The position numbers were made by a program, and so were the translations under genes. 64,000 bases of DNA from Leucoraja ocellata (lineage: Eukaryota). The notes below the pieces were generated by a model. It saw only the letters and a list, made by a program, of their open reading frames with translations. It ran no database searches and was not told where the DNA came from. Below are positions 7,613 through 58,027 of this stretch, piece after piece (the stretch's first letter is position 1; each line of letters starts with the position of its first letter). The stretch covers positions 434,001 through 498,000 of the forward strand of contig JAWMAR010000788.1 of assembly GCA_036785375.1 (NCBI GenBank). Reading direction: 5' to 3'.

Positions 7613-7681
7613 TCAGAAGAGATTCTCTTCAAATATTGCCATTAAGTCGCTCTGAAAATTCATGTCAATCGTAGCCGCCAT
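7613..7681 (-). CDS. BRD4: BRD4 terminal coding exon: P-TEFb-interacting C-terminal motif
   Basis: MAATIDMNFQSDLMAIFEENLF*, the characteristic BRD4 C-terminus; acceptor TTTAG|. Confidence 0.97.
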   Translation of the reverse strand: MAATIDMNFQSDLMAIFEENLF

Positions 7682-8601: not shown

Positions 8602-8871
8602 GCACAAGTGCACTGGCCCTTCAGTAACAGCTTATTTAACACACACTGCAGAAATATTGAACCTATTCTATACTTTTACAATATTCATACACATTCTTCT
8701 GGTTGATATCAATGGATTACGTATCACAAAAAATTAAGGACAATTTTTTCCCCTCTGTGAACCCACGGTAAACTATCTAAAAAGTTATCACAAACTAATA
8801 GGCATGGTTCTAAGGGACTGTAAATCCTGTTCAACATTCCATCCCATCTACGAGTTGCACTGGAAACTTAC

Positions 8872-9175
8872 TGCTTCCTTCCGCCTTCGTTCTTGCTCCC
8901 GCTTCCTTGCTAGCTCTCGCTGCTGATCCAGCATAGACTGTGAGNNNNNNNNNNNNNNNNNNNNNNNNNNNNNNNNNNNNNNNNNNNNNNNNNNNNNNNN
9001 NNNNNNNNNNNNNNNNNNNNNNNNNNNNNNNNNNNNNNNNNNNNNNNNNNNNNNNNNNNNNNNNNNNNNNNNNNNNNNNNNNNNNNNNNNNNNNNNNNNN
9101 NNNNNNTGCTGCTGTCTTCTCACCTCCTCGTGAGCTCTCCGGGCGCACTCCAAAGCATCCTCCTCATCTCGACTT
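8872..9175 (-). CDS. BRD4: BRD4 exon 19 equivalent: poly-Q region (assembly gap) and start of PID/CTM
   Basis: (R)SRDEEDALECARRAHEEVRRQQ[N gap]SQSMLDQQRELARKREQERRRKEA; TCCAG| and GCA|GTAAGT. Confidence 0.92.
8945..9106. other. Assembly gap (162 N) inside the poly-Q coding tract
   Basis: N run directly after CAG CAG CA codons on the minus strand. Confidence 0.99.
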
Positions 9176-37800: not shown

Positions 37801-39866
37801 ACTTGCAATTATATTTTATTAGATGTATTTACTAAATCCAATGTGTTAACTCTGAAGGAAGCTTTTGGACTTCCCAACTCTGTGCAGTTTACATGCCTCA
37901 ACATCCAAACACATCTACGACCCAGCCCCAATACAAGATTTTATCTTGTACTTATATGATAATCACAGCAGGAACAATGTAATATGCAGCCGGCTGACCT
38001 CTCAGTTCCAAACTCCGCACTCTGTGGCTATTACACAATTCAATCTGTAGAAAGGTACAGCTTACAACTAAAAAAATGTACTCATCTCAAAGATAGCATT
38101 TGTGTAAGAAATCACAATATCCAAAGACCATACATACCGTAACACGCATGAACATTACAAAAATAAAACTGTTGACAATTATCTTGGATATATTAAATAC
38201 ACACAGCAAGAGCACCTTAATCGGTCTGTAACCGAATCTTGAATGACCAACTAATGTACATAATGAAATTACCCACTAAACTGGAGGTGCACATAATGTT
38301 AATTAGAAACCTTATGCTCAATTATTCCTAATCAGAATATCAATTACTCATATTTCAGTGGAAAAAATGCTTTGATTTCATGACATTTGGATGGGGGGGG
38401 GGGGGGGGGGGGGGGGTTAGAGAGAGGGAAAGGAGAGCAACTAAAGAACTCTGAAGGTCAAAATTGAAGAGTTGAAAAATTTGAAATGATCTACAAGACT
38501 AGAAAACAAGCTTCCAGAAAACTTGACCGCACTTTTCCACATTTTTATAATTAGCTAGGTTACGAGTCAGCCCTGTAGACAATTCCTCTGCAGTCAGTGG
38601 AAGCAATCAGGAACAAGGAAGAGGGGGCTTGGGTTAAGGGGTCCTGTCAAATTGCAGCCCTCAAACAATCTTCAGGGCAGAACTCTTGACTGAATGAAAG
38701 CCTGTGTATTAAACATATTTTAATGGTGTGCAACTTAATCACAGGATATGATAGGATTTTAGTTCAAATGTTCAGCAATGACTCGGTTGTGGGTAGTGAC
38801 AATTAACAAGATCTGACGTGGTCATATATGCACAACTGGTCTTTTCTGAAAATTATAGTTAAGTGGAAATATCTAGGTGGTAAATTACAAGACCATCATT
38901 TTAAACTACGTCTGATGCAAGAGAAAATATACAAGCAAAGTTTGAAATAACCGGCTCCAAGATTAAGGGACAGCCTTGCAACTAACTAACCGGGCATTTT
39001 CTACAATAGTAAAAAAAAATAATGGTACATAATTAAATAGCTTACTTGCTTTAAATGCGAAATCTCACTGAGTCGACGGCCATGAAGGTGTAGTAGTAGA
39101 ACGCAGGATGTAGATAATTTTTTGCCAATTGTAACAGTTGTAAAGGATAAAGATCTGTAGCCCACCAGGTTTTTTCTCCTCCTTTTGCTGTCCTCTCACT
39201 GTTTATATAATCAAATTTAGACAATGCACATGTACCTTACTGCGCAAGAGTCCACAGTGCACATGGAGTTGGGGAATATCTTGAAACCTGCCCCTTTCAC
39301 AGCAGATCTGTGTTAGCACCAACCATCTGAAATGCTACACGAACTGCACTCAGGTGAACGCCATGTTTTGTAAACAGCATTCCAATTGCATGTCCTGACC
39401 AGAAATCCTTCATACATTTTTTTTTAGACAGGTGAAGCAAATTTCATTTGCTGGTAGTCAAACGTCGATCTTTCAAAAGACGAGGTAGAAAAAAACCAAT
39501 CCTGCTTTTTCCAAGAGCAAAACAATTTTCTCTGTTGAAGCTGCTTTCTAATTTAAGTGCAACTTAAGCTCTTTTTATGGCTTTCAATGGTCACTGTCAG
39601 CATTATTGCACTTTTTCTATGCAGCTTAAACAGACTAGCGCTAGAATTTCTTCCAGACATGTTGTTCTTTTAACACAAGGAACTACTGGTAAAAAGCTCC
39701 ATTAATCTGGCAAACTGTATGTATTGCAGTGATAATTAGAAGTCACTGGTTGTCGGTTGGAAACTACGATGGGTGGTTTACAGAGAGTACGTGGGGCAGA
39801 GGGGAAACAGACTTTGCCAGCGCCAGGCTAGCAACAGGCTCAATTACTGAAAGAATTGACGCTAAC

Positions 39867-39989
39867 CTGTTTCAGAGTCGTTGCTCTCAGAGGAGCTGGA
39901 GTCACTGCTACTGTCTGACTCAGAAGAACTGCTGCTGCTTCTCATCCTTGATGGGCCTCCCACATCCATGCTTACGTCATGCTTCTCAG
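39867..39989 (-). CDS. BRD4: BRD4 exon 11 equivalent: SEED (Ser/Glu/Asp) tract
   Basis: (A)EKHDVSMDVGGPSRMRSSSSSSESDSSSDSSSSESNDSET; acceptor TACAG|, donor AG|GTTAGC; 123 nt, phase 1 to 1. Confidence 0.93.
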
Positions 39990-41685
39990 CTGTACAAAGA
40001 GAATTATTGTGTAAGTAACAGGACTAAGTAATCTGCTAAACATCAATACTGAAACTAACTGGCTTGTCTACAGTTTTAAGTTGCAATTTACCTTTGGGTT
40101 TTGTTGATTACTATCAATTATAGGCACTACTTAAGACAATGTTGTACATTAATACATTAGGAAGGAGTCACAATTCTTACTTATCTATTCTTAAAATGTT
40201 TTAAACAAGTTCCATAATTGTCATTTCAACTCAATTTGAAGAATCAGCCAAAATGAAGTTAAACTGGTTAACCTCTAAATGTTCAAGTTAATTAGGTGTC
40301 AACCTCAAATTTTACTGCAAACACCGTCAGGGCATCTATGAGAAAATGGACCCAATTCATAACGCTACTTCTCCCCGTCATAACAAGCAAATTAAACATA
40401 TTCTGTCTAAAAGAATGAAACTCTAAAATATTGAACAGATTGATAATTTAATAGTTTTCTCCTAATATAAGTGGATAGAGAATAATAATTAAAGAAACAA
40501 CAGATGTATGACAAGGTCTATCACTCAGGGAAATTCACTTTTTGCAAACAAAAATAAATGCAGGATACACCAGGTTACAAATTTGGGGTCAGTAAAAATA
40601 AAGGACAGCAAAGCAATGAAACCATTCCAAGTAGAGAAGACCTCACACGGAATAGTACTCAGTTCTGCTGTAATGTGATAATTGCGTTCGAGCGAAATCT
40701 TGTGTCACGGAAAATTTAAAACAATGTTGACAATGGAGAACGGAGGGTCTGGGGCAAGAGAGTTTTAGATTCGCAATAACCAAGTTACAAATGAGGGACT
40801 TTTTAATAGTGAAAATATTTTGAATATTGAATATTGAAAATATTAAAGTATCATAGAATGTCAATTGAACGGATTATATTTGTCAATTTCAATGGGTATC
40901 TGAGGTGAAACTTGCAGGCTGTTCTTAAGAGACAACGGCCTCTGATTATTGCAGGGAAGTTATGTGGAAACAACGGACTGTTTTTATTTTCCCCAAAGGG
41001 GCTATCTTTTTCTGCTTGTCAATTTCCAAAGTAACTTTAAGTGGTTCTCTAGCTCCCCATACAACTAATTCAGCCTGTATAAAACTGATAATGTTTCCCA
41101 ACTCATCAATTGTGTTCCATCCACTGAGTATTATGGAAACATGCGTTATAGCAGAACGACCTGCATTCGCATGAAAGTTATTAATTTAAGCACAAGTTCA
41201 AATTCCTGACTTATTGGATTCAATCATTGTAGAGTGCTTTTGAATACTCGTCGTGGACTAATGAGGTCAAGGCTAAACGCTGAGAATTATATTTAGGAAC
41301 AGGCCACATTGCAAATTATTTTCATACTTTGAATCAGAATGATTTTAGCAACGGACTACCCAAGTCCAAGACAGCAACTTATGAGTCTTGATATTCCAGC
41401 AGCTTCATGGGCATTCATTTATGGTAATCAAGTGTGCATGAGGAAGCTATGCTGAATCAACCCGAATGTCTTCACTCAATATAAAGCCACGATGAGCTCC
41501 TACTTTAATGCAGCCATCATACTTCGAGCATTAAGAATTGATTTTGACATACCTTCCCACTTAATTTAGTTTGCTTTACAATTTTGACAAATGCATTTTT
41601 TATTAATTTCACACACATTCCACAATAACTAACAATTGTTACATTAATATGAATAAAGATTAGTCAACTGTTACATTAATATGAA

Positions 41686-41782
41686 TCAGTATGAAGGGTC
41701 TTGACCTGAAACATCACCCATTCCTTCTCTGCAGAGATGCTGTCTGACCCGCTGAGTTAACCCAGCATTTGGTCTACCTTTG
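41686..41782 (+). mobile_element. Penelope-derived short element (degenerate hammerhead)
   Basis: GAAGGGTCTTGACCTGAAACATCACCCATTCCTTCTCTGCAGAGATGCTG. Confidence 0.7.
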
Positions 41783-42364
41783 AATCAAGATTAAGAGAGC
41801 AGGAGAGCTCCCAGTCCCTCCAACAAGTTCATATTATTGCTTAATAGAATTAGTTTATTATTTTATTTACACCAGCTCGTAAACCTAATCCATGAAAATA
41901 ATTTGGAAGGGGATTCAAATCGAAGCTGTGCACTCGATATACAAGGATATCCAAGTCCCTTGGACTGCTTTAAAAATTCAGCATTTCTGATTTTTCTACC
42001 AAAGCAGATAATCACACATTTTTATACTTTCTATTCCAACTGCCAAATTATTTAGCTTGACTCTATCACTTCTTCACATCCTCAGCACAACTCACATCCA
42101 CACTATTTTGTGTCATTAGAAATGTTACATTTTGTCCCATTGGCTAAAGTGTCAATAACAATTGTGGTAAATTTGGGACTAAAGCTCGAATTCCCATGGC
42201 ACTCAATGAAAGGGAACAATTTATACCCACTATGTTTTTTACTGTCCAACTCTCAATTCAAGCTAGTCTATTAGTTCCAATTCCACATGCTCAAACTTTT
42301 TTCGCCAACCCTTTGAGTGGAAATCAGAAGCCTTCCAAAAATGCAAATGTCCAAATCACACTAA

Positions 42365-42681
42365 TCACGGTGGCGCAGCGGTAGAGTTGCTGGCTTACAG
42401 CACTTGCAGCGACGGAGGCCCGGGTTCGATCCCGACTACGGGTGCTGTCTGTAGGAGTTTGTACGTTCTCCCCGTAACTGCGTGGGTTTTCTCCAAGATC
42501 TTTGGTTTCCTGCCACACTCCAAAGACGTACAGGTTTGTAGGTTAATTAGCTGATATAAGTGTAAATTGTCACTAATGTGTGTAGGATAGTGTTAATGTG
42601 CGGGGATTACTGGTCGGTGCGGACTGGGTGGGCTGAAGGGCCCGTTTCCGCGCTGTATCTCTAAACTAAAACTAAACTAAA
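42365..42681 (+). mobile_element. Near full-length tRNA-derived V-SINE
   Basis: A box TGGCGCAGCGG 42371-42381, B box GGTTCGATCCC 42423-42433, V domain, CR1-like tail and (CTAAA)n. Confidence 0.9.
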
Positions 42682-43754
42682 TCTATACTAGATATTTCAA
42701 AACATTGTGGAGTACAGAGGCAAATAAATAAACAATGGATCTTTGCCCCAAACATTATGGAGGGCACTGTGTATATCATCTGTATATGTTATTCATTTTT
42801 GGGCATATTAACTCCATCTGTAAATTTCTATACAAATTTATTTTTATAATATTTAGTATTTAGCATATAACAATATTTTTGGAAGATTTTTCATGTCCAT
42901 GACATCAAAATATTTGCCCCCCCCCCCCCCCAGGAGCTAAACATTTCCGATTCAGATAAAATAATAATAAAATGGCTAGCGATTAATGTATGTGTGAAAA
43001 AACTGATTAAAAAGTCAGGAGTTCACACAGTTGCACCACAGTTTGTGCACATGCTGCGTAGCTGTGACAAAATAATTATTCACCATTTGAAGTTGTCTTT
43101 ATTTAATCTCTTGTTACTTTTCTTGAGATACAGATTTCTATACAAAATTTAAGTAATATATGGGTCTGAAATCAAGAGGCAAGTAGATAATAGGGCAGGT
43201 TAAATGGTGGACATCACTGGAGATAGCCTGGTATTTTGTCCTATAGCTTCCGAGCATAACTTTTCTCAGAGACAGTTCACAAGTCATCAAAAAGATTGAT
43301 TTATTACTTGATGTAACAAGATTCGGGACTTTAATAATTCCGTTACTGCACCCACTCACATTGAAGTAAGTGAACAGTGGAACATGAAGAACATTGTCTC
43401 CGTTTATTGTTATCATGTTATAAACTTAAACAGGTCCTTGAATCTTCGTGAGCACAGTATAAGCATAATTGACTGCTAGATACAAGTAAGGCATAGGGTC
43501 AAATATCAAGTTACAGACAAGGCAATACTCATGAATAACATACTCTGATAAGGTAGTGCTGGCAATTCATGGAATTTACAAATGTGTCCTTCAGCTTAGA
43601 TTAGCTATGAATTATTTGCTCTCAAAGGTAACTTCAGGCAGGGTTCATTAGACGGCAGTTCGTTTCACAAGAGACATAGATTTTCACTGATGAAACATTC
43701 ATAGACGATGATTTGTGCAGGAGCAAATATTAATGAGCATTTACTTTTGTGTAC

Positions 43755-43927
43755 TGACCAGATTGTATACTTTTCTAGGATATGAGAGTGGGAGAAAACC
43801 GAAGATATCGGCGAAAACCCACGCAGGTCACGGGGAGAACATACAAACTCTGTGCAGACAAGCGCCCGTAGTCAGGATCGCACCCGGGTCTCTGGCATTG
43901 TAAGGCACGTAGTCACCGTGTCGCCCA
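43755..43927 (-). mobile_element. V-SINE 5' half
   Basis: GAAAACCCACGCAGGTCACGGGGAGAACATACAAACTC...GGATCGCACCCGGGTCTC (reverse B box). Confidence 0.75.
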
Positions 43928-44299
43928 TGTTCTTCTACTTTTCCCAGTAAGATAATCATACCTGGCCATAATTAGCATCTCAAAAGTAACCTCAAAGCAA
44001 CAATTACACAAATTCTTGACCCACATTGATTCATGCGTTGCAAAAAACACAGCAACTGGACTCCTCCTCTTTATCTATCCATTTCCCATGTCAGACTCTA
44101 CACATCTGTCACAGATGCAGAACATTGCTAAACAATGAAAATGAATGGCTTGAAATGTACAACTTGTTGCAACTATTGTCAACTATCATTTTCAGCAACT
44201 ACTACATCGCAGTGGCCCAAATGAAGCAAGGCAGGTTAATGGTTAAATACAGCTAATCCAGACTTAAAATGCATGCGAGCCAGACTTTGCGTGACTTAT

Positions 44300-44711
44300 T
44301 GTGTAAAAATGAACTGCAGATGCTGGTTTAAACTGAAGATAGACACAAAAAGCTGGAGTAACTCAGCGGGACAGGCAGCATCTCTGGAGAGAAGGAATGG
44401 GTGGCATTTCGGGTTGAGACCATTCTCAGACTGGTTAGGTATAAGGGAAACGAGAGATAGACGGTGATGTGGAGAGATAAAGAACAATTCTGCCATTGTC
44501 AGATTGAGGCTAAATGCTGTTTCCTTTATTATCTTTACTTTTTTGCATATCTTTCATTCATTTTTCTTTATCTCTGCACATCACCGTCTATATCTTTCGT
44601 TTCCCTTATCCCTAACCAGACTGAAGAAGGGTCTCGACCCAAAATGTCACCCATTCCTTCTCTCCAGAGATGCTGCCTGAGCCGCTGAGTTACTCCAGAT
44701 TTTAGTGTCTA
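44300..44711. mobile_element. Penelope-derived fold-back element with about 145-bp inverted arms
   Basis: Arms about 44340-44487 and 44560-44711; CTGAAGAAGGGTCTCGACCC-AAAATGTC (hammerhead with GAAA mutated to AAAA). Confidence 0.82.
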
Positions 44712-45999
44712 CGAGAGACTTATTGACAGGAGAGCAGGGGTCGGGAAGAAAAACGTTCCTCCCAAGGTGAGGATCATGAGTGATTATGACGGAAGACGTT
44801 AAGATAACGAGAACAGATAGCTGTTCATAATGGCAACATTTCTATTTGCAGGGGTTAGGAGAACAATGGAACAAAATGTTAGTTTATGTGCAGATTTGCC
44901 ATAAACCTTCCAAACAGTGTGTGACTTGTGTTTAGTCATGACAAAGTAGAGTTAAGAAGAATATTCAGTAACATGAACAGTGACTGTGCAGATCCCTGGA
45001 TTGGTTTGATCAATTTAAAGATATTAGAGACGAATTTTCAAAGATTATTTATATATTACTTCGGATTTCACCGTAATCAATGGTTATTGATTTAACATAC
45101 ATCATGATACTCAAAATGATGGCATAGTCCCATGTACTTTAAACTATTGCAGTCCTGCTTTCGCTTCCTAGCTATCAAAGATTTTCAAAATCTTTGATGG
45201 TACTTTAAAAAAAATCTTTGATGTTTTATTCTTTGTAGAATTTACCTTCCCTGAGAAATTGCTTGAACAAATTCTCTAGTTAAATCTCCAAATATTGAAA
45301 TGTTCATTTTATCTGACCCTCTGCTAGTAACAATGTATCTAAAGCACTTTCAATCAGCTGGTACTAGACTCACATTAACATGGTCTCTTACCACAATGTT
45401 CCTTCATATAACCAGGCAAAGTCACCCGGGGGACAAGAAATACAGCAACCGGAAAAACATCACTTCCTTACAACATGGTAATCAAGAAAACTTAACCAAA
45501 GAACAAGGAGGGTTATGCTTTCGTACATTAATGTATTTCTTCAATAACTGACTTCTAAAAATATCTGCATCATTCCATTCAATTACATAAAACATGCAAG
45601 ACCATTTTACTTCCAATTAAATACTTGTTAAGTATAACAATAGCTCAAACGTAGCTTTACAGTGTGGTTCCACCCACAACTTCATTGTTTGAGCATAATC
45701 ATGATTTAACACATTTATCAACACTGGACATATTACAGCCAAGCACTATTATAGCTTTCTGGGTTTCAGTAGGAATAACCGTAATGAGACCTAGAGTACA
45801 AGATCATTCCAACTTACCCGCACCACAAAAAACACAGGGCAGAAAGGCAATTGCTGCATCCATATCATCATCCATGCTGATACAAAATTGTTCAGCTCAA
45901 GCATAGAACGAAACCCAAAGGAAAACCGTTTCATTTTTTTGGGAGGCCAGGATTTATTGTCCATCCCAAAATGCCTTTGAAAATGAGGTGGTGAACTGA

Positions 46000-46990
46000 A
46001 CTGTTGAACTGAATTTTGAACTGCTTCAGAGATTTTGGTGAAGGAACTCCATTGTTGACGCGGACTACCAGGATTTTGAACCAGCAATGATGAAATAATA
46101 GCAATAACCTTCCAAATCTGGATGATGTGCAGTACAAAGGGGAAACTGCACATGCTAATGTCCCATATGCCTAACGTCCCTATTCATCTTAGTGATGAGA
46201 GGTTTTTGGCTTGGGAAAACCTTTCCTCGTGATCCTGATGAGAAACTGCAGTGCATTTGTGGATGGCACACGGTGCAGCCACCGATCCAGGAAAGGGAGA
46301 GAAGTCCAACACACTCCCGAATTGTGATAAGGCTTCAGGAGATGATTCGTTCACTGAAAGATAATTGTATCTGAGCTGGTCTCATAACCACATTATTGAT
46401 GTGGCTGGCTCTTTTGAGCTTCTGGTCAATGGTTTGGAGTGGAGTCACCAAAGTAAAACCAAAACTGGGCAGCAGCCATTTGTCGGCACTGTTAATTAAT
46501 GATTGAGAGTAGGTAGTAATGTGAAATCATATTTCTTTTTGTGAACGGTATATGTGGTCCTTTTTCCACATGATCAAGCAGATACCAGTGTTGCTTCTGG
46601 AACAGCTTGGCTGGAGAGAGTTCATCAACTGCAGTTCTACAATGAGGATTACTGGAGCCAGCAGCCTTTTTTGTAGCTAGTGTTCGCAGTAGTTTCATGT
46701 CACATGAAGTGAATCAAATAGATTGAACACTGTCTTCTGTGAAGGTTTGACCATGTAAAGTATCATTATCAATGGCAAAGGCATTGGCTTCTTCTTCGGC
46801 ACTAATGTACCAGCTGCCCACTATTGTCAAGTATGGGGATATACTATGAGCTGTTGTTGCATCCCAATAGCATCTTCCTGTCCACCATCATTCATGACTA
46901 AATGTGTTTGGATTGCAAAGATTTGATCTGATGGTTGAGACTGCTTACTGCATGCTGTCTAACAAATAAGTAGTGTTTTGTTGCAGCTTC
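46000..46990 (-). mobile_element. Old CR1-like LINE fragments
   Basis: Degenerate CR1-type sequence, partly similar to 60810-61085. Confidence 0.4.
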
Positions 46991-47274
46991 AAGTCAGAAC
47001 CATACAAACATCAAGAAATCTCAAAATTGTAGTCGTATAAGTTTTCATTTAAAACTAATTCTTGTTTTCTGTAAGGAGTAAATTTCTGGCCCACAACATT
47101 TTGAACCAAGACCATGAGTGTACAGTTCATTTCAGTGTCTTGGTGCTCAGTGGGAAGTGTTGCATCAGTTGCAAAGTGGTCAGGTTTCATCTCATTATTG
47201 CATTCCAGTAAACAGAATGAAAGACAAACAAATGTTGCCAGTCCATTAGATATCTAAAAATCACTTGATATTGA

Positions 47275-48067
47275 TCACCCGACTGAATGGTACCAGAAAA
47301 ACAACCTTGCTCTCAACGTCAGTAAAACTACGGAAATTATTGTTGGCTTTTGAAGAAGCAGCTGAGGATGCACGAACCTGCCTTCATCGAAGGTCGGATG
47401 TGGAGAGGGTCAATAACTTCCAAGTTCCTAGGTATGCATATCTCTGAATATCTGTCCTGGGATAGCATATTTATACAATCATAAAGTAAGCCCATCAATG
47501 CCACAACTAGCTTAGAAGATGGGGGATTTTCAGAACATTGATGAATACTCTCTTGAATTTATACAGCTGTACGGTAGAGCACATATTGACTAGTTGCATC
47601 ACAGCCTGGTTTGGCAACTCAAACGCTCAGGAACAAAGGAGAGAAAAGTGGTGTATACTGACTGCCCAGTCCGTCAAAGGTACTGACCTTCCCACCATCA
47701 AAGGGATCTACTGGAGGTGCTGCCTGAAAAAGGCAGTCAACATCATTAAGAATCCACACCATCCTGCCCATGCTCTCATTTCACTCAAGAATCCTGAAAA
47801 CTGTAATGTCCAGATCCAAGTACAGCTTCTTCCCAACTACCATCGGGAAATTGAATGTTGCAGAACTACGAACTGCCTTGTCTTCGGGCTTCGGCACAAA
47901 TTGTTTTTAAATAAATATATATTCATTTAACTTCTTCGTTATGTTTGTTTATTATATTATCTATTGAGTACTCTGCTTAGAAACCTATTGTGCTGCTGCT
48001 GCACGCAAGAATTTAATTGTTCCATTTTGGTGCATATGATAATAAAACACGCTTGACTTCTGACTTG
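47275..48067 (+). mobile_element. Old Rex1-type LINE 3' fragment
   Basis: NLYSCTVEHILTSCITAWFGN, LKKAVNIIKNPHHPAH; AATAAA plus (CTTGA)n tail. Confidence 0.8.
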
Positions 48068-48614
48068 AATATCATTGCAGCTGAGTCTCGTTAAAACTTG
48101 TAAAAACATCAATGCCAATGTGTTGCAAAATGAATCACAGCCTTCGTGCTTGTGAAACTTAAATTATGCAATACTTCATGCACTGGATTTAATTCCAAAA
48201 TGCCACAAATTACACAGAATTTTGCAATATTGCAGCTGTCCTTATAAGACAGTTTCGTAAGAAACCAGTGTCTCGATCTCTCAAATACTCTACAAACAAG
48301 GGTGTGATTCTGTGGCTGTGTGGAATGCCCAAATCTGGCATTAACTGTACACTCTTATCTACAGAAGAGATAAACCTCAACCTTCAAAAGTGAGCGTATC
48401 CATACAGCAGTGATAACTGGGAACAATTAAAACAGTCAGGCTTTTCAGTAGCTTGTTACCAGCCATTTGCATTGAAATGCTCAATCATTTAAGAGATTGG
48501 AATGAGAGAGGGGGAGAGAGGAAAAGTGATGTTTCACAATTCAATGCAAGTTTAAATTTATCAACATCAAAAGACAAGGCAAAATCCATCTTGAATCACA
48601 AAGACTTCAAACAT

Positions 48615-48975
48615 GACATAAGAACATTTGAGTAAGCCACTCAGCTCATAAGCCTATTTCCTAAACAAGATGATCATGGCTAATATTTTCCTCGGTTTCA
48701 GCTTCTGGAGTTAAACTCATTTAATTTACTTTCTTAATATATTGACTTCCATCGTGAATATTTACAGCAACCGAATCTCATGTTCCTTGGATAAAAAATT
48801 CCAAAGATTCATCCTCAGTGATGAAATGTCTTCTTATTTCAGTCCAGAAGAGCCAACACTTGAATTTGAAACTAATCTTTGGTTCCAGATTTCTAGCCAT
48901 GCAAACATTATCCTTCCATCAACCTGTCAACCTCCATTACAGTTTTCTATGCTTCAATGTAATCACCTTTAATAC
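48615..48975 (-). mobile_element. Old CR1 3' fragment
   Basis: CATAAGAACAT...GCCACTCAGC...GATCATGGCT reverse CR1 tail. Confidence 0.5.
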
Positions 48976-49268
48976 TATAGATAAGTGTTTAATCTCTACA
49001 TATACAGGTAGTTCTGCTGTAAATGCGATAGTTGAGTTCCTTAGAAACCTTCGGTTATAGAAAATGGAGTTATTAAAAACAATTGAGTTAATGGGAAGAA
49101 AAGTGAGCTAGGGGCTGAGACCAATTAGTTATTTTTCCCATACAGGGTTTTCAAACAATGTTTTTCTAATAGCTATAAGTTTAATTTTGTTACTGAAAGC
49201 TGTATGTAACATTATTTAATAGAGTATCATTGCACAAGTGTCAATGGAAACGATTGCTTGTCAATTTC

Positions 49269-49487
49269 GTAGTCAGGAACTGCAGATGTTGGTTTACACC
49301 GAAGATAGACACAAAATGCTGGAGTAACTCAGCGGGACAGGGAGCATCTCTGGATAGAAGAAATGGGTGATGTTTCAGGTCAAGATCGTTCTTCAGTCTG
49401 AAGGGTCTCGACCCAAATCGTCATCCAGTCCTTCAATCTAGAGATGCAGCCTGTCCTGCTGAGTTACTCCAGCAATTTGTGTCTAAC
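49269..49487. mobile_element. Penelope-derived fold-back element with a 15-bp TSD
   Basis: TTGCTTGTCAATTTC at 49254-49268 and 49488-49502; inverted arms. Confidence 0.82.
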
Positions 49488-49759
49488 TTGCTTGTCAATT
49501 TCTCAAGCCACTGGCCTCTGTTCTTACGAGACAATGGTTACAATGGGACAGTTACATAGAAGATATTTGTCCCTTCAATTTCTCTCTCCCCCCCCCCCCC
49601 CCCCTCCCCACCCACCAAGACAGTTTTGTCTCTGCTGGTCAATTTTCAAAGTAACATCAGTTCCCTCATTTCTGATCAAAATTGCATTCTTACCAATTTG
49701 ACCCACATAATACAGTAATGTTCCCTAATTCGTCAATTATGTTATACCCAATTAGAGAT

Positions 49760-49890
49760 ATGAGTTGAGATTGCAACCTTCACGTGGTCCGCCCTGTTTT
49801 GACAAATGCAATCAACCTGGCGTGCACAATCAAATAGAACAAGTTGTCCTACAACTTTAGGCTGTGCACGCCATACGCAAGAAGAAGAAG
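49760..49890 (+). mobile_element. Short retroposon 3' end with nested stem-loop and (AAG)n tail; family uncertain (Vingi/RTE-like?)
   Basis: TGGCGTGCACA/TGTGCACGCCA inverted repeat, then TACGC(AAG)4. Confidence 0.5.
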
Positions 49891-50629
49891 TTCTTGGGTT
49901 CAGTGTACGAAATTAGAGAAAAGACAGGAGAAGATACAACTATAATCCCATTGCTCTGGTCTGAAACTGTAAATGAAAGAATCATGCTCTCACTTTTACC
50001 AGTGAACCTCTGGCTTCCTGTTTTAATGTGATACATTTCCATACAAACAATTTTCTATCAGCAGAATTTATGATTTTTAAATAATTGTTAATTTCATATG
50101 TTACTGTCATGACAAGAAATAATGATCTGGAAGAACCAGCATTAAAATTGATTTCTCATCATAGGCAGAATACAGGACCATGTAGAACTCGATTTGTAGC
50201 AAAGCTTTGAAAAAAAAAAAAAAAAATCACATCTTACCCGCTGCCTACGATTGCAGTGATTACCTGCAGTACACATCCAGATTAAACAAATAAGACCGTT
50301 TCAATCTATTAAATCACAAATACTGATGAAATCACCACCATACCTCTCAACTGTATGCTTTTTTAAATTACGGTGACACAATATAAAGCTGCACACATTG
50401 AAATAGCAGCCAAATTAAACCAATCAAAATCAGGCAATTTACAAATGCTACCAAAAGCCGCATTCTTCTGAAAGCATAACCCAGAATTCTGTCAATCCAC
50501 GCATTGCAGTTTGAGAGGTATGTGCACCACAAAATTAAAGCTATTACAAATACGTACAAATTTATTTTAACCTTGGCCCCAACCTAGGATAACCTAAGGA
50601 TCTACTTCACAAGGTTGCACTACACCAAC

Positions 50630-50749
50630 CTTTTATGCCTGGTTTCTTCCCAGAGCTCAGCTGGCCGCTAACGTCATGTAACCTGGTATCCAGCTCACTC
50701 TTCGAGTCTAGCTGGAGGTCATCGTTCGATTTCCCTGGGACTTTTTTCA
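50630..50749 (-). CDS. BRD4: Extra BRD4 exon encoding a BRD2/BRD3-type post-ET coiled-coil segment (probable cassette exon)
   Basis: Acceptor TTTGCAG|, donor AAG|GTTGGT, 120 nt, phase 1 to 1, no stops: (V)[39 protein letters not shown]; resembles BRD3 [31 protein letters not shown] (from memory). Confidence 0.88.
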
Positions 50750-52825
50750 CTGCAAACAGCATCACACAACAAGATTTGGACCAAACACTTTGGTACCATT
50801 ATACAGGTACAACACAGTGAATAAAAATGACTCTAATTTGGCACATGGGATCAGATGCAAATTGAAGGAAGGAAAAGCAGCTAAAGGGGAAAAAAAAGGA
50901 TCCATTCATTGTTTGCAACTTAAAAAGCCAATAATCTAAAAGAGAATTTAGCAAATGTTTGGAAGCATGTAGCGAGGTCATGATAATTTTGTTTTGTGAA
51001 ACATAAACCACATTTTAAAAATACTGAAGTATATAGAATGCACAATTCAATTTATTGCCAAAAACATTCGAACCAAAGAGCTGCTCAGATGATCAGACCA
51101 GAGGGAAAGGGAGTGAGGGTTAAAGAAGATTCCTGGCCACTGATTATAAATAAGTCAACTTCAAAAAAAGAACCATAAAAGGCACATGAATTGTGAGGAA
51201 TAAAAAAACAATTACTTTAACCAAACTTGGACCAAGTTAAATTTAATTTTAACCACTTTCACTCATAGTAAAAGGCTAATGGTTGAAGCAACCGGTCAAC
51301 AAAGTTTCTCAACTTTCCCAAACCATATACTAGCTGCCATGACAACCAGAGATTTGCTACGGCAACAGTGGAAGTATCCAGTCTTTTCCTTCAGCATGGT
51401 TAGCATTATAATGAGTTATATAACCCCAAGAAAGTGTTTCAGTGCACCACTTTCGTTCTCATTTGTTTTGTTATGAGAAATATTACCTACAATATTTTCC
51501 CCCCATAAAGATTTACTTTTATATTATGACGTCACTACTGAAATTCACGATTTTTGCCAAATTCAAAATAAATTTAACTGGAGAAGCCAAATCTGGTTCA
51601 AGATGAAAAAGAAAATAGTGTACCTCTGAAAACCAGCTGTTGCTCTGATCTCTAGGTTAAGCAGCCCCAAAGATGTCAATACCCAACCTGTGTGTGCCCA
51701 TTCCACAAGTCCAATGATGCTGTGACAGTGTAGATCATTTAACAATGATCACATATCCAAAGTAAACATAAGATGATTGTTGCCATAAAAACTGAACATT
51801 ACAAATGTCTTCCAACAAAAAAAAATGCAGAACAAACCACCCAAATCAGGGCCTGTTCATGGTGCATAATGAAAACATCATACATCACCAATAATTATAT
51901 CAAAATTCATCCTCACTGGAATCAGTGAATTAATTGGTTATTTATCTAATTTGCAACTACCAAGTTATCAAAATACATTGAAGCAGATTATCTACTCTTT
52001 GAAGTTAATACAGCAAGTCCTTTTCCCCCATCACCATACAAAAATCCTACAAATTTGAATATCAATAGCTTCTGCAACAAAGAATAAAATGGTGTCGTAT
52101 ATGTACAGGCGGAGAAATTTGTGTTCAATTCTACACGTTTCTGGACTAATTGGGGAGAAAATTAAGTACGGTAAGTATCTGGATCTAATCTAGGCCTTAC
52201 ATATGCGTCCAAAAGTTAGATACTAAGAGCATGCAAATTCAGATATTTATCTCATAGTTTCAAGGTTAAATTACCAGCACAGAAAAGAGTTACAAAGGTC
52301 TAAGTTTCTGAACTTTCCTAAAGCATTTTATTAGACAGTATATTTTTATGTACAATGGCATGCTCCTGGCATTTAGAATTTAGAAAATGAAACTGTCAAA
52401 ATCAGAGCAAGTTTTCAAGGAATGATGATGCAGAATAATTGTCCATAGTTCTTCTAATTTAAGGATAAACTAGTTGTTACTCAAATTGTAGTTTAGTACA
52501 TTAAATAATGCTAAAGCAGCACGGGATGTGTGTTTTACAGGGGAGGATAGGTGGCCAAAACAAATATTGTTGATTTGCTTAAATCCAAGATTGCCAAAAA
52601 GTGTATTTACAATCATATCCTAAGAATTTAAAGATAACATTAAGGATGGTCATGTATTGATTCTACCCAATCCCACACAGCAAACCCACGATAGGCCCAC
52701 AAAGACAAGAGTACCAACTGTATATATGATTAGCACTGTCTGGTAACATGTACGTTCCTAATGCTGTAAATCTGCCATGGCTTACCTGGAGGATCACATT
52801 GTGGGACTGGCTAAGACTTCACTAA

Positions 52826-52895
52826 AGTCAGTTCAATTGGATGATCAGCCAAGGGCCGAATGGCCTACTCCTGCACCTATTTTCTATGTTTCTAT
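52826..52895 (+). mobile_element. CR1 extreme 3' end
   Basis: TTGGATGATCAGCC...AAGGGCCGAATGGCCTACTCCTGCACCTATTTTCTATGTTTCTAT. Confidence 0.75.
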
Positions 52896-53129
52896 CTGAA
52901 CCTAAATTGGGCAAGGGTTGGTCTTGTGAAATATTTATTCTCAGTATCACAGCATTTTGATGTATAATGTGAGCCAGCCAGAATACTGGGGCGAAGTCTA
53001 AGAGATTAGGTAATCTCAAATACCTTGATACTCAAATAAAACCAAGTCAATCTATGCAATGTGTTTGACCCACATACGAGTTCCTGACAATGTATCATTC
53101 CTATCATCGAGATCGGCTATCACCACCAG

Positions 53130-53520
53130 TTTGAGATTCTCCCATGATGAAACATGCCCTTCCATCTGGGTCAAGAACCCTCAGGATTTTACATTGCAAT
53201 CAAGTCTCACTCTTCTAAACTCCAGCAGATGCAAGCCAAGCCTATCCAACCTCATTTTAAATATTTGTCTCATAAACCTCTCTAAGCTGCTTAACATTCT
53301 CAATTTCATACGTTTACTAATGCTGTATGTGTGCTCCAGATGTAGTCCAATAGCCAATGTAACTGAAGCATGAACTTTCTACTTGTGTATTCAATAACCC
53401 TCGCAATAAGATTGTTAGCTTTTCTAATCACTGTGTGCTGGCATACTAACCTTTTGAAAAATAATGCACGAGTTCACCCCGATGCCTCTGCATCCTTAAG
53501 TTTCACAGAATATGATTTCC
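53130..53520 (-). mobile_element. Old CR1 ORF2 fragment
   Basis: CCCTCAGGATTTTACATTGCAATCAAGTCTCACTCTTCTAAACTCCAGC reverse-strand CR1 signature. Confidence 0.55.
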
Positions 53521-55968
53521 TATTTTCACTTTACAAAAACATGACTGAACTTATCACTACAAAACGTACTCATACTTTATATGCTATAAACTATTGAGAT
53601 CCTGGTCATTAGATCGCTCTTTATAAAGTCCTTGACCGTGACGATTCACTCATCTTCCCAAGGGCCCAACAAGGTGTCGGGACCTCCAAATCTGGACTCT
53701 ATTTTAAACACCTCTACTGACAGCTGTACTTTTAGACATCTTGGCATCATGCTCCATAACTCTCCTCCTCGATAAATGTCCCGTAAGTACCTTAGACACT
53801 GTTTTTGGTCACTACCATTGATATGGCCTGTGACACCATTAAAAGGACACAAACATTACTCTTAAGTATCCTGGTACATTTGGCTACAGTAAAGGCACGT
53901 TTTATTTGTGTCTTAGTCAGCTAATAGTAGTGACAAAATGTGTTGGCAACATGGGTAGATTTGCAATAGCATCTGTCCCCACAATAGTGAAGGTCAGAAT
54001 ATCATGGCATATAACCATCTCCAATGACAATCTGCAAATAAAAATATCCAAGGACATGTTTTTGTTAGCATCTTGGACAAAGAGTAAATTATACTCTGGT
54101 TTATTTTATTTTGATATGGTGGGATTGTATCATGAGACAAAATGAATTTGTACCGTGTCAGCTCCTTAGAATCAAAAGTAAATAAAAATAACCTAAGTAT
54201 AGCATTAGTAATCTTAAGAAACGTGTGGATAACTCACTGGAGGATGCAAGAGCACTTGGCCCCCCCAGTGAATTATCCATGCATTGAGTTATATTGGAAT
54301 TAGGGAACATTATTTGGATGTAATTTCTCTGTATTCATGGGTATGCTGTATTTGATTAGGCAAGTTTAATGTTGGTCCTGGGTAGCTAACACACCAAGCT
54401 TCCATTTGAGAAGCACCAAATAAGAGAAGTGAATGGTAGTTTAAAATGTGTAAATCTTAAATTTACAGTCAAGTGTACCAGGAATATTTCAAAAGGGAAA
54501 TACGAAAGAAATGTGGCTTTGGGCCAATAATCTTCAAATGTTCCAGAATTTGAGGTTTATTGCTAATTGACAACATATTGTATTGTGAACAACTGACTGA
54601 TGGTCCATTTGGCCGTGTAAATTGTCTTCCTGTAGTCACTTTTTGGATACGAGAGGAAGCTTCAAATTAACTTTTTTGTGCCATAATTATTTCCTCTGCA
54701 TGAAACATGGATCCGAAGTCAGCGGGAAAATATTGCAGCAAAATGCAACAATTCAGAAGCCAAACAAACCACTACATAAAAATAACTCAAATACAGAACA
54801 GGTTGAACCATGAGATCCATGGAAATTGGTTGGTGTTTAATTTTACATTTGCTGCCTTCTGTAAAATCAGCAAATTCCATCTCCAAACCTGGTGAGTGAT
54901 GCCATCAGACTGTTAATTCATGAGGTAAATCATGTTCCAAACTAAATAGATACCAAAGCACTCCACTATCTAACAAGCAAGCAAGGAGGTGAACAGTTAA
55001 CTGGCCCTGATTGATTACAAGTCCTTTGGACTCAATCCCCTATCCCTGTGAAGGAATGTAGGTGGAAGGGGAGGGAGCGGGAAAAATTAAATAGGTGCAT
55101 CCAGGTGGGCCACAGGGGAAGGGGAGTGAAGGTTTGGGTAAGAGAGCGGGTTTCGTAGTTGCATAAAATCAGAGAATTCAAATGTTCATACCGTTGGTAT
55201 ATTCTGCTTGGGTGGCTTATAACCCAACAGTACGAACATTGAAATCTCCGATTTTAGGCAAGTACAACCCCCCCCCCCATCTCCATTCTCCCCACCCCCT
55301 TCATTCCTTTCAGCTTCACAATTGCAATGTTTCAATCCTTTGTGTCTTTTTTTTACAATAAACGTGACTCGACTTGAATTTCCACAAATTAAACCCAACC
55401 TGAAGCTTGGCCCTGAAGTAAACCTGGCATTTCTTTTCTTCCCGTCTTATAATGCCCATCAAGATTACCATCACAACTGTCATTTTAGCGTTCTTGACTT
55501 TGAGTCCCCAACCCAAACAATTACATTCCCATGCTGCACCTCTATCATGCCATGTAGTGCAACTCTCCTAGAGGACATCAGCCAGACACTCCTCTCCCTC
55601 CTTCAAGATGTTTCTTCTTTGCTCCTCTAACTGACCCTTATAAGATGACTTCAGTCAGACTTCGTTAATTAACAAGAGAAGATGAGGAAAAATAAATAAA
55701 TCACGCCTTAATAATGGGGATCTGGAATTCACTGCCTGACCAGGGTGGTGTAGGGAAGCAGCAACTCATATTTTATTTAAAAAGATGAGCAACTGATAAG
55801 ATTTAACCTCCAAGACTACATAAAGAAAGAGTGGGATTAATCTAATAAACAGTTTTACCTTTAACTTTAATAGATCATCTAATACTTGGTACACATTCTA
55901 CAGCTCTGACACTTGGCCTTACTGCAGTTAACGTACTTTAGGGATTTATACGCTACACAATTTTGATC

Positions 55969-56018
55969 ATTCAAATCAGAAACAATTTAGTTTATTCAAA
56001 TCAGAAACAATTTAGTTT
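55969..56018. repeat. Perfect 25-bp tandem duplication ATTCAAATCAGAAACAATTTAGTTT x2
   Basis: Seen directly. Confidence 0.9.
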
Positions 56019-57074
56019 ATTAATCAAATTAATTGAAAATAAATATAGTACTTTAACCTATTATGATTAAATATATTTGATTTCAAAGGTCACATTTTTA
56101 TGCCCCGCCTCAGGATGACCAAAACATTAATTAACCTGATTTTTCCTGTAATCGTCTTTGGAAAACAGATAGGGGATGAATTTGGGTAGCAATACCAAAA
56201 AAAATCAGATGGTAACTTAGTCAATGTTTTTTAACCTCTATGACACTAAGCAAATTGAGGGCCACAATTCACCATGTCATGAGGAAATATTTTTGTTAAC
56301 AAAAATAGTTTTATTTGCACGGAAATGTCAAATTGACACTTGGGTGGGGAAAATATCAAAGAGCATTCCTGTTTCTGTTTCCTATCAAACCAACAGCTGG
56401 AAAAATTACTGTAAAATAAAAAAATACCTGCAGTTCCTCATCGTGGAAGAACAGTCATTCTGGCAATACAAGAAGGTGAAAGGAAGCTGAGCGTGTCATG
56501 ATTAACAACTTACAACATACACATGGTCCTGTTTCCTACACTTCATATTGAGTCACAAAAGTGTGATCTCATTGGGAGACGAGTATGATATATTTGCAAG
56601 AGGAACTGCCAGGACAACATTTTAATGGCATTCAAATTATCCACCACTAGGTAAAACCAACAAAAGTAAATTTCATTTGCGGAATTCCGATTGTTAAGAG
56701 CAAGAGACTGAAGTTGTACAGAAAGCCATTCCAATTAGCATTGCAGCTTTTCTGCTAGCCTCGAACATGTCACTTAAACCTTGTTTAATGTGACCCTACA
56801 ATCTATCAATGAGAAAAAAAAGATGCTCTCAGATGCATCTCCAACATGTTTTAAATGTCAGGCTTTTAATGAACGTAAATTTTTTATCTTTAAAAAACTG
56901 GTTTTTGCTTCAACAAATCAGTCCCTGGCAATAATGCAGTGTGTTGACACATTGCAGAATTGCAGCAGTGTGGCCTGGACTCCAGCTGAAGATTTAGGAA
57001 AGAAACAATCACCCACGTCACGCTTATAAACCACCGAACAGCTGGCTTTCAGAGGTAAAATAAGGAAAAACCTA

Positions 57075-57626
<552 letters not shown>

Positions 57627-58027
57627 TCATGCTTTACAGAGAAGTGTGATTAATATTACTCAGTTAAGAAGACCAAGACCTAGCATTTAGCAAGATTTAT
57701 ACTTATAAATGCAGCATAACAGCTCAAAAGTTACGCCCAAGTACTCCATAACCTTTCTTCTGCTCATTTAAAGCAATAACTACAAGTATATTCACCATAA
57801 AGGATTGTAAACATAACACTTAGAAACAATTTCATTCTGTGAATCTTTGTAAGCACATATGATATTATCTCCATTTCATGAGGGTCCCTGTTTAGCAATA
57901 TTCCATCCACCCCTGCCATTTATTGCGTATGTCCTGCCCCTGACTGGCTTCCCAAAATGCAGCAGCTCACACTTGCTGGAATCAAGTTATATCGGACAAT
58001 GCTCCGCCCAACTTGTTCTTTATCATG

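Follow-up and report, generated by a model that had tools for sequence, protein, structure and literature searches.

A BRD2/BRD3-type coiled-coil exon in the BRD4 gene of Leucoraja ocellata

Reviews treat the coiled coil that follows the ET domain (CC) as a feature of BRD2, BRD3 and BRDT that is absent from BRD4. A 120-nt open stretch in the present window (the whole stretch of DNA that was analysed, 64,000 nucleotides) raises the question of whether a BRD4 gene can carry such an exon, whether the exon is used and what it would add to the protein. Our results indicate that the exon is real and functional-looking, the CC module itself being already known from BRD2, BRD3 and BRDT.

Judged from its sequence, the gene that hosts the exon is BRD4, because its ET domain groups with BRD4, it has the exons of the P-TEFb-interacting motif (PID) and tetrapod BRD4 proteins match it by tblastn. 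In a tree made from ET domains only (28 rows, 84 columns), the gene fell in a nine-row set with eight bony-vertebrate BRD4s (support 97/93). In the same tree, the BRD2-type ET of this genome equalled that of skate BRD2 and its BRD3-type ET paired with sawshark BRD3, as would be expected of a cartilaginous fish. The ET exon matched PF17035 with an E value of 1e-29, and the proline-rich and terminal exons of tetrapod BRD4 mapped along the window by tblastn. Note that the assignment rests on the ET domain and on a proline-rich C-terminus ending in the PID/CTM, the two bromodomains lying upstream of the window. The exons concerned are these:

57275..57561, minus strand: ET-domain exon (PF17035), upstream neighbour of the CC exon, ending CAAG/GTGAGT at 57275
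39867..39989, minus strand: SEED exon, downstream neighbour of the CC exon, starting CAG/CTGAGAAG at 39989
8860..8937, minus strand: P-TEFb-interacting C-terminal motif PF17105, first part
7616..7681, minus strand: last coding exon, second part of PF17105

A separate gene of this genome (C647/C2) carries both the CC and PF17105, and from these two features we infer that it is BRDT. A BRDT-like ET exon copy at C2:4003088-4003258 is a partial match with three stops inside; the C647 copy is open.

The first-pass annotation had placed a stop-free 120-nt exon with AG/GT ends and phase 1-1 inside an ET-to-SEED intron of about 17 kb, and had noted that skipping it would join KPQ to AEK. Both statements were reproduced, down to the 39 residues. 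Positions 50749-50630 of the minus strand hold a single open frame, with 39 residues plus a Val that spans the junction and zero stops; the exon is preceded by ...GCTGTTTGCAG (ending CAG) and followed by GTTGGT. With 57275 as the end of the ET exon and 39989 as the first position of SEED, skipping yields KPQ-AEK. The features of this interval are:

39990..57274, minus strand: ET-to-SEED interval, 17,285 nt, divided by the CC exon into introns of 6,525 and 10,640 nt
50750..50799, minus strand: acceptor region of the CC exon, with CAG, 12/20 pyrimidines and 10 TG per 50 nt
50630..50749, minus strand: CC-type exon of BRD4, 120 nt, phase 1-1, with junction contigs and with matches to the paralogues and to PDB 6cui
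50624..50629, minus strand: donor GTTGGT of the CC exon, departing from GTRAGT at +3 and +4

The ET-to-SEED intron contains eight stop-free AG-120-GT stretches, and the shape of the exon is therefore by itself no proof. With a profile of the BET post-ET CC, only 50749-50630 matched (28.3 bits), the other two matches in the window scoring below 0, and the peptide matched the BRD2 construct PDB 6cui with an E value of 6e-5. This genome has three paralogous CC exons (56, 51 and 50% identity), each of which follows an ET exon and is flanked by phase-1 introns, in the same position and phase as that of BRD4. On this sequence evidence, the BRD4 peptide is homologous to the post-ET CC exon of BRD2, BRD3 and BRDT. 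The peptide falls in no Pfam family; a protein search with the 40-residue peptide returned five candidates, none of which scored, and HMMER over cluster representatives gave eight matches, none closer than 63% and one of them a spurious repeat protein. Among the matches listed in the protein searches there was no full-length cartilaginous-fish BRD4.

As occurs with the post-ET coiled coil of BRD2 and BRD3 (ETCC, PDB 6cui), the BRD4 segment lies between ET and SEED in its own phase 1-1 exon, and it shares the GK..ELxxRLxDVSGQL core with about 50% identity. Unlike them, it sits in BRD4, its charged positions are changed, its predicted helix is shorter and its donor is weak. The paralogous CC exons have the donors GTATGT, GTAAAC and GTATGT, and the donor consensus is GTRAGT. 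The acceptor had been described as weak and UG-rich. It has 10 TG in 50 nt, and with 12/20 pyrimidines it is, by that count, no weaker than the SEED acceptor, which has the same number.

Is the exon spliced into transcripts? Words of the exon were shared by 23 runs, 17 of them RNA by guess and six of unknown kind, none being recorded as RNA. Four of these runs, from four related organisms and four studies (X4, X5, X6 and X14), were compared with 39700-57700. The two inclusion junctions that had been proposed as a check were both found in contigs, each with GT-AG ends and each in three of the four runs: 57275-50749, from ET to the CC exon, in X5, X6 and X14, and 50630-39989, from the CC exon to SEED, in X4, X5 and X14. 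Contigs of all four runs thus carry at least one CC exon junction. In X14, a single 3,368-nt contig (record 1) spans ET, exon and SEED; its last 2,086 letters fall off 39700-57700, which would fit the long isoform. In X5 and X6 there are contigs that pass the SEED donor unspliced and meet TAG at 39864-39862, the end of a short isoform (ETG-stop) like that of tetrapod BRD4S. The read-through contigs continue into the intron, one of them, in X5, being 6,004 nt long.

No branch bypassing the exon was seen in X4, X6 and X14, in contigs, which drop rare forms. X5 has one ET-to-SEED contig, of depth 8.47 compared with 18.2 for inclusion and labelled "120 letters between". Taken literally, the label makes this bypass a different 120-nt exon, and none such is present in this intron; the bypass may represent a second, mutually exclusive 120-nt exon. 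In the ET-to-SEED intron, neither the profile nor DNA alignment found a second CC-like exon (best score 34.0; shuffles up to 34.0). The bypass contig has 27 letters on the SEED side and the SEED contig starts one letter early, a geometry that would also fit a direct skip, because the ET and CC exons both end AAG. Inclusion of the CC exon is the main form, and bypass is minor, in one of the four runs. The proposal that the exon is a regulated cassette is the weaker for it. The exon has cassette geometry (a length divisible by 3 and symmetrical phase, so that skipping keeps the frame), a weak donor and conserved silent sites and flanks; against this, inclusion is the sole route seen in three of the four runs and the larger one in X5, the X5 bypass is not labelled as a clean skip, and no clean skip junction (57275-39989) was among those listed. 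TGCATG and GCATG were both absent from 50300-51250.

The same contigs speak to the suggestion that the exon is in gradual decay. Compared with the window, the CC exon has 1 difference in 120 (X14), 0 in 114 (X6) and 1 in 122 (X5 and X4), that is 0-1 differences over 25.7 synonymous sites, while the ET exon has 28 and 32 differences of 290, about 10% (Fisher p 5e-4 for X14). Among the ET differences listed, 23/25 are synonymous. The SEED exon is similarly conserved, with 2-4 differences of about 123. Note that the runs were selected by word sharing with the CC exon and that X5, X6 and X14 share most of their ET differences, so the test amounts to about one long branch. In addition, the two assembly copies, C788 and C268, differ at 230 positions in 19.3 kb, and the exon lies within a block that does not differ at all:

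50366..51209, no strand: invariant block around the CC exon, 844 nt, zero differences between C788 and C268

This is the second longest invariant run in the 19.3 kb, where about 0.01 such runs are expected at a uniform rate; the longest, 39417-40620, contains the SEED exon. A shorter invariant run, 718 nt at 47724-48441, is without a known exon. The block and the near-zero divergence of the exon argue against decay. A relic on its way out would account for the divergent residues, for the weak donor and for the loss in other BRD4 lineages, yet the exon is included in contigs of all four runs and is almost unchanged beside an ET exon that differs by about 10%, and we consider this reading very improbable. 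Low silent change and conserved flanks are marks of regulated exons, and the CC exon has both, together with the weak donor GTTGGT.

In the intron upstream of the exon, contigs of X4 and X5 show two conserved blocks, 50750-50860 and 51596-51670, with about 95% identity over 50722-50860 and about 89% over 51607-51670. The surroundings had been called repeat-free over about 3 kb, which is roughly right: repeat copies lie at 49264-49498 and from 52851, with a short skipped repeat at 50200-50238. The downstream intron holds several interspersed repeat copies of 86-129 nt, in both orientations, between 41693 and 49498, including a near-adjacent inverted pair at 49293-49498.

What kind of peptide does the exon encode? 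As had been claimed, the hydrophobic positions are kept and the charged ones are changed. The peptide retains the hydrophobic stripe L-L-V-L and DVSGQL (the stripe served as search anchor), and seven residues of the 27-residue core (D6, D10, S11, S13, D16, T17 and H20) occur in 0/48 homologous segments. S27, at the core edge, is an eighth such position. There is one E-K/R pair, against 5-8 in the homologues, and the helix propensity of the core is worse than that of 41/42 homologous cores. The long E/K-rich helix that characterizes the BET CC is, on computed grounds only, lacking in the BRD4 peptide. The structure comparison with a BRD2-type segment, suggested in the first-pass annotation, gave a helix, although a shortened one: single-sequence AlphaFold predicts residues 16-31 (16 residues, pLDDT 73) for the BRD4 exon, versus residues 8-30 (23 residues, pLDDT 87) for the BRD2-type exon of this genome. 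Since E-K/R pairs are fewer, helix propensity is poor and the AlphaFold helix is shorter, we expect the charged N-terminal half to fray and the amphipathic C-terminal half to persist. Partner binding may be gone, because the changed residues fall outside the range of the 48 segments and the E-K/R pairs are down to one.

The CK2 consensus is S/T-x-x-D/E, and the BRD4 peptide has three S-x-x-D/E sites (S7, S15 and S17), compared with one in the BRD2-type exon. Another reading would then be that the exon is constitutive and that its helix has, in the N-terminal half, turned into a CK2 phosphorylation switch, acidic and rich in serine, beside the SEED cluster. Three of the four runs show no bypass, and the residue changes are directional rather than random and fixed across the organisms compared, all of which suits such a switch, as does the regulation of BRD4 by CK2 described in the part of PMC8578508 available to us. 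The motif is a weak one, however, X5 does show a bypass, and selection at the protein level would leave the near-zero silent change and the invariant flanks unexplained. We regard the switch as unlikely.

Equally doubtful in our view is a constraint that acts on RNA or DNA, through splicing signals for the short and long isoforms or an overlapping enhancer, with the peptide as a passenger without CC function. Silent sites and flanks are constrained as much as coding sites, the helix propensity is as poor as described above, and both teleost BRD3a and bony-vertebrate BRD4 manage without the segment. The reading frame, all four hydrophobic positions and DVSGQL have nevertheless been kept while adjacent charged positions changed, which points to past selection at the protein level. 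Moreover, the 844-nt block folds less stably than shuffled sequences (z +2.0, 25 shuffles) and so gives no RNA-structure support. Internal BET exons with conserved surroundings are known in BRD2 (exon 3b), BRD3 (exon 5b) and BRD4 (exon 3b), according to the accessible part of PMC10789245; those are poison exons in other introns, whereas the CC exon keeps the frame, is mostly included and has no RNA-structure signal.

We then asked of which BRD4 genes the exon is characteristic. Had it been general to vertebrate BRD4, as the first-pass annotation considered, its novelty would be gone; 0/123 bony-vertebrate BRD4 sequences carry a CC segment scoring above 10 bits. All 62 BRD4 ET rows among the matches listed pass from ET to SEED without it, and so do 60 spliced isoforms of 63 ET-bearing cluster members, the other three being genomic read-through frames. 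These sequences, many of them redundant, come from gar, numerous teleosts, a newt, lizards and mammals, and include no ET-SEED junction from coelacanth, lungfish, bichir, sturgeon, frog, bird or chimaera. Human BRD4 isoform C (PDB 36iu, chain K) reads KPQ-AEK. The claim that mammalian BRD4 lacks the exon is thus correct and too narrow, as the gar, teleost, newt and lizard proteins lack it as well. Bony-vertebrate BRD4 (human isoform C, gar, teleosts, newt, lizards) shares with the present gene the ET domain, SEED, the proline-rich region, the PID and a short-isoform stop after the SEED exon, but runs from ET straight to (A)EK...SEED. The newt BRD4 cluster also holds four short, unrelated zinc-finger-like peptides (P0243, P0244, P0246 and P0247), a clustering artefact.

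In the other ET+PF17105 proteins (24 named invertebrates and one other), the CC segment is found in 24/25; the profile was partly built from these proteins, and the motif is nonetheless visible. The segment is also present in the BETs of lamprey and hagfish. CC and PID do occur together in this BRD4, as predicted; the combination is not special, however, being shared with BRDT and the invertebrate long BETs of Fs(1)h-L type, whose CC is canonical and E/K-rich, while here the gene is a BRD4 orthologue. An old PID is already known, a CTD being noted in BRD4-L, BRDT-L and FSH-L in the portion of PMC5133849 at hand, where sharks do not come up. Given 24/25 on one side and 0/123 on the other, the simplest history would have CC and PID in one protein as the ancestral BET state, in agreement with the earlier view of an ancestral BET exon, with the PID lost in BRD2/3 and the CC lost, presumably once, in bony-vertebrate BRD4. 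The present BRD4 likely shows the stage preceding that loss. Ten teleost BRD3/BRD3a-type proteins (Astyanax, Salminus, Electrophorus, Acnodon, Prochilodus and one more; P0073, P0075, P0080, P0082, P0083, P0098, P0099, P0101, P0103 and P0104) are without the post-ET segment, a parallel loss.

BRD4 might instead have lost the exon before the jawed vertebrates diverged, this lineage recovering it later through exon copying or gene conversion with a paralogue as the source; on a three-branch tree such a regain is formally equal in length to a single loss. The BRD4 exon is, however, about equidistant from its three paralogues and shares their position and phase, and a symmetrical exon can be lost in a simple way, teleost BRD3a being another case of such a loss. 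Regain therefore seems to us hardly credible.

Our preferred reading, to which we give a probability of roughly 0.6, is that the exon is included by default, with a minority bypass under splicing control, and encodes a shortened docking helix beside ET. The exon would descend from the one BET gene of the ancestor; BRD4 of cartilaginous fishes would have kept it, and that of bony vertebrates would have lost it. The amphipathic helix would form a weakened docking site of the BRD2/3 type: in its N-terminal half, the replacement of E by D and of K by S, T or N would have removed helix-stabilising salt bridges, and its intact hydrophobic half could still contact partners like those reported to bind the C-terminus of BRD2 (TFIID, PAF). 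The weak donor would permit the minority bypass, inclusion being the default, and the conservation of silent sites and flanks would reflect splicing control. With the exon, the short isoform would have the BRD2/3 layout (BD1-BD2-ET-CC-SEED-stop) and the long isoform the ancestral one, with CC and PID.

What such a helix might do is suggested by work on BRD2. As far as the available parts of these sources go, the CC confers BRD2-like activity on BRD4S (PMC8446420), the ETCC module is linked to PAF (PMC11939847) and the BRD2 C-terminus is required for TFIID binding (bioRxiv 10.1101/2025.09.20.676678), the deletion in the latter taking out the whole C-terminal fragment and not the CC alone. In a more tentative extension, possible but improbable as it stands, this BRD4 would recruit TFIID/PAF through the exon and P-TEFb through the PID, and regulated splicing, by including or omitting the exon and by choosing the short or the long end, would switch the gene among a BRD2/3-like initiation reader, a BRD4 of mammalian type and an all-in-one form like the ancestor.

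In the literature covered, the full text of Werner et al. 2020 being outside its scope, we found no publication that describes a CC in any BRD4. The same 2025 preprint (bioRxiv 10.1101/2025.09.20.676678), in its accessible part, puts forward an order in which BRD4 acquired the P-TEFb domain first and lost its initiation function afterwards. The sequences point to another order, in which CC and PID are ancestral, the PID disappeared from BRD2/3, and the CC disappeared from BRD4 at a later time, once cartilaginous and bony fishes had separated. A living BRD4 with a half-altered CC would then be a natural intermediate, and its 40-residue insert suits the existing BRD2 complementation assay, in which it separates the hydrophobic from the charged half of the helix.
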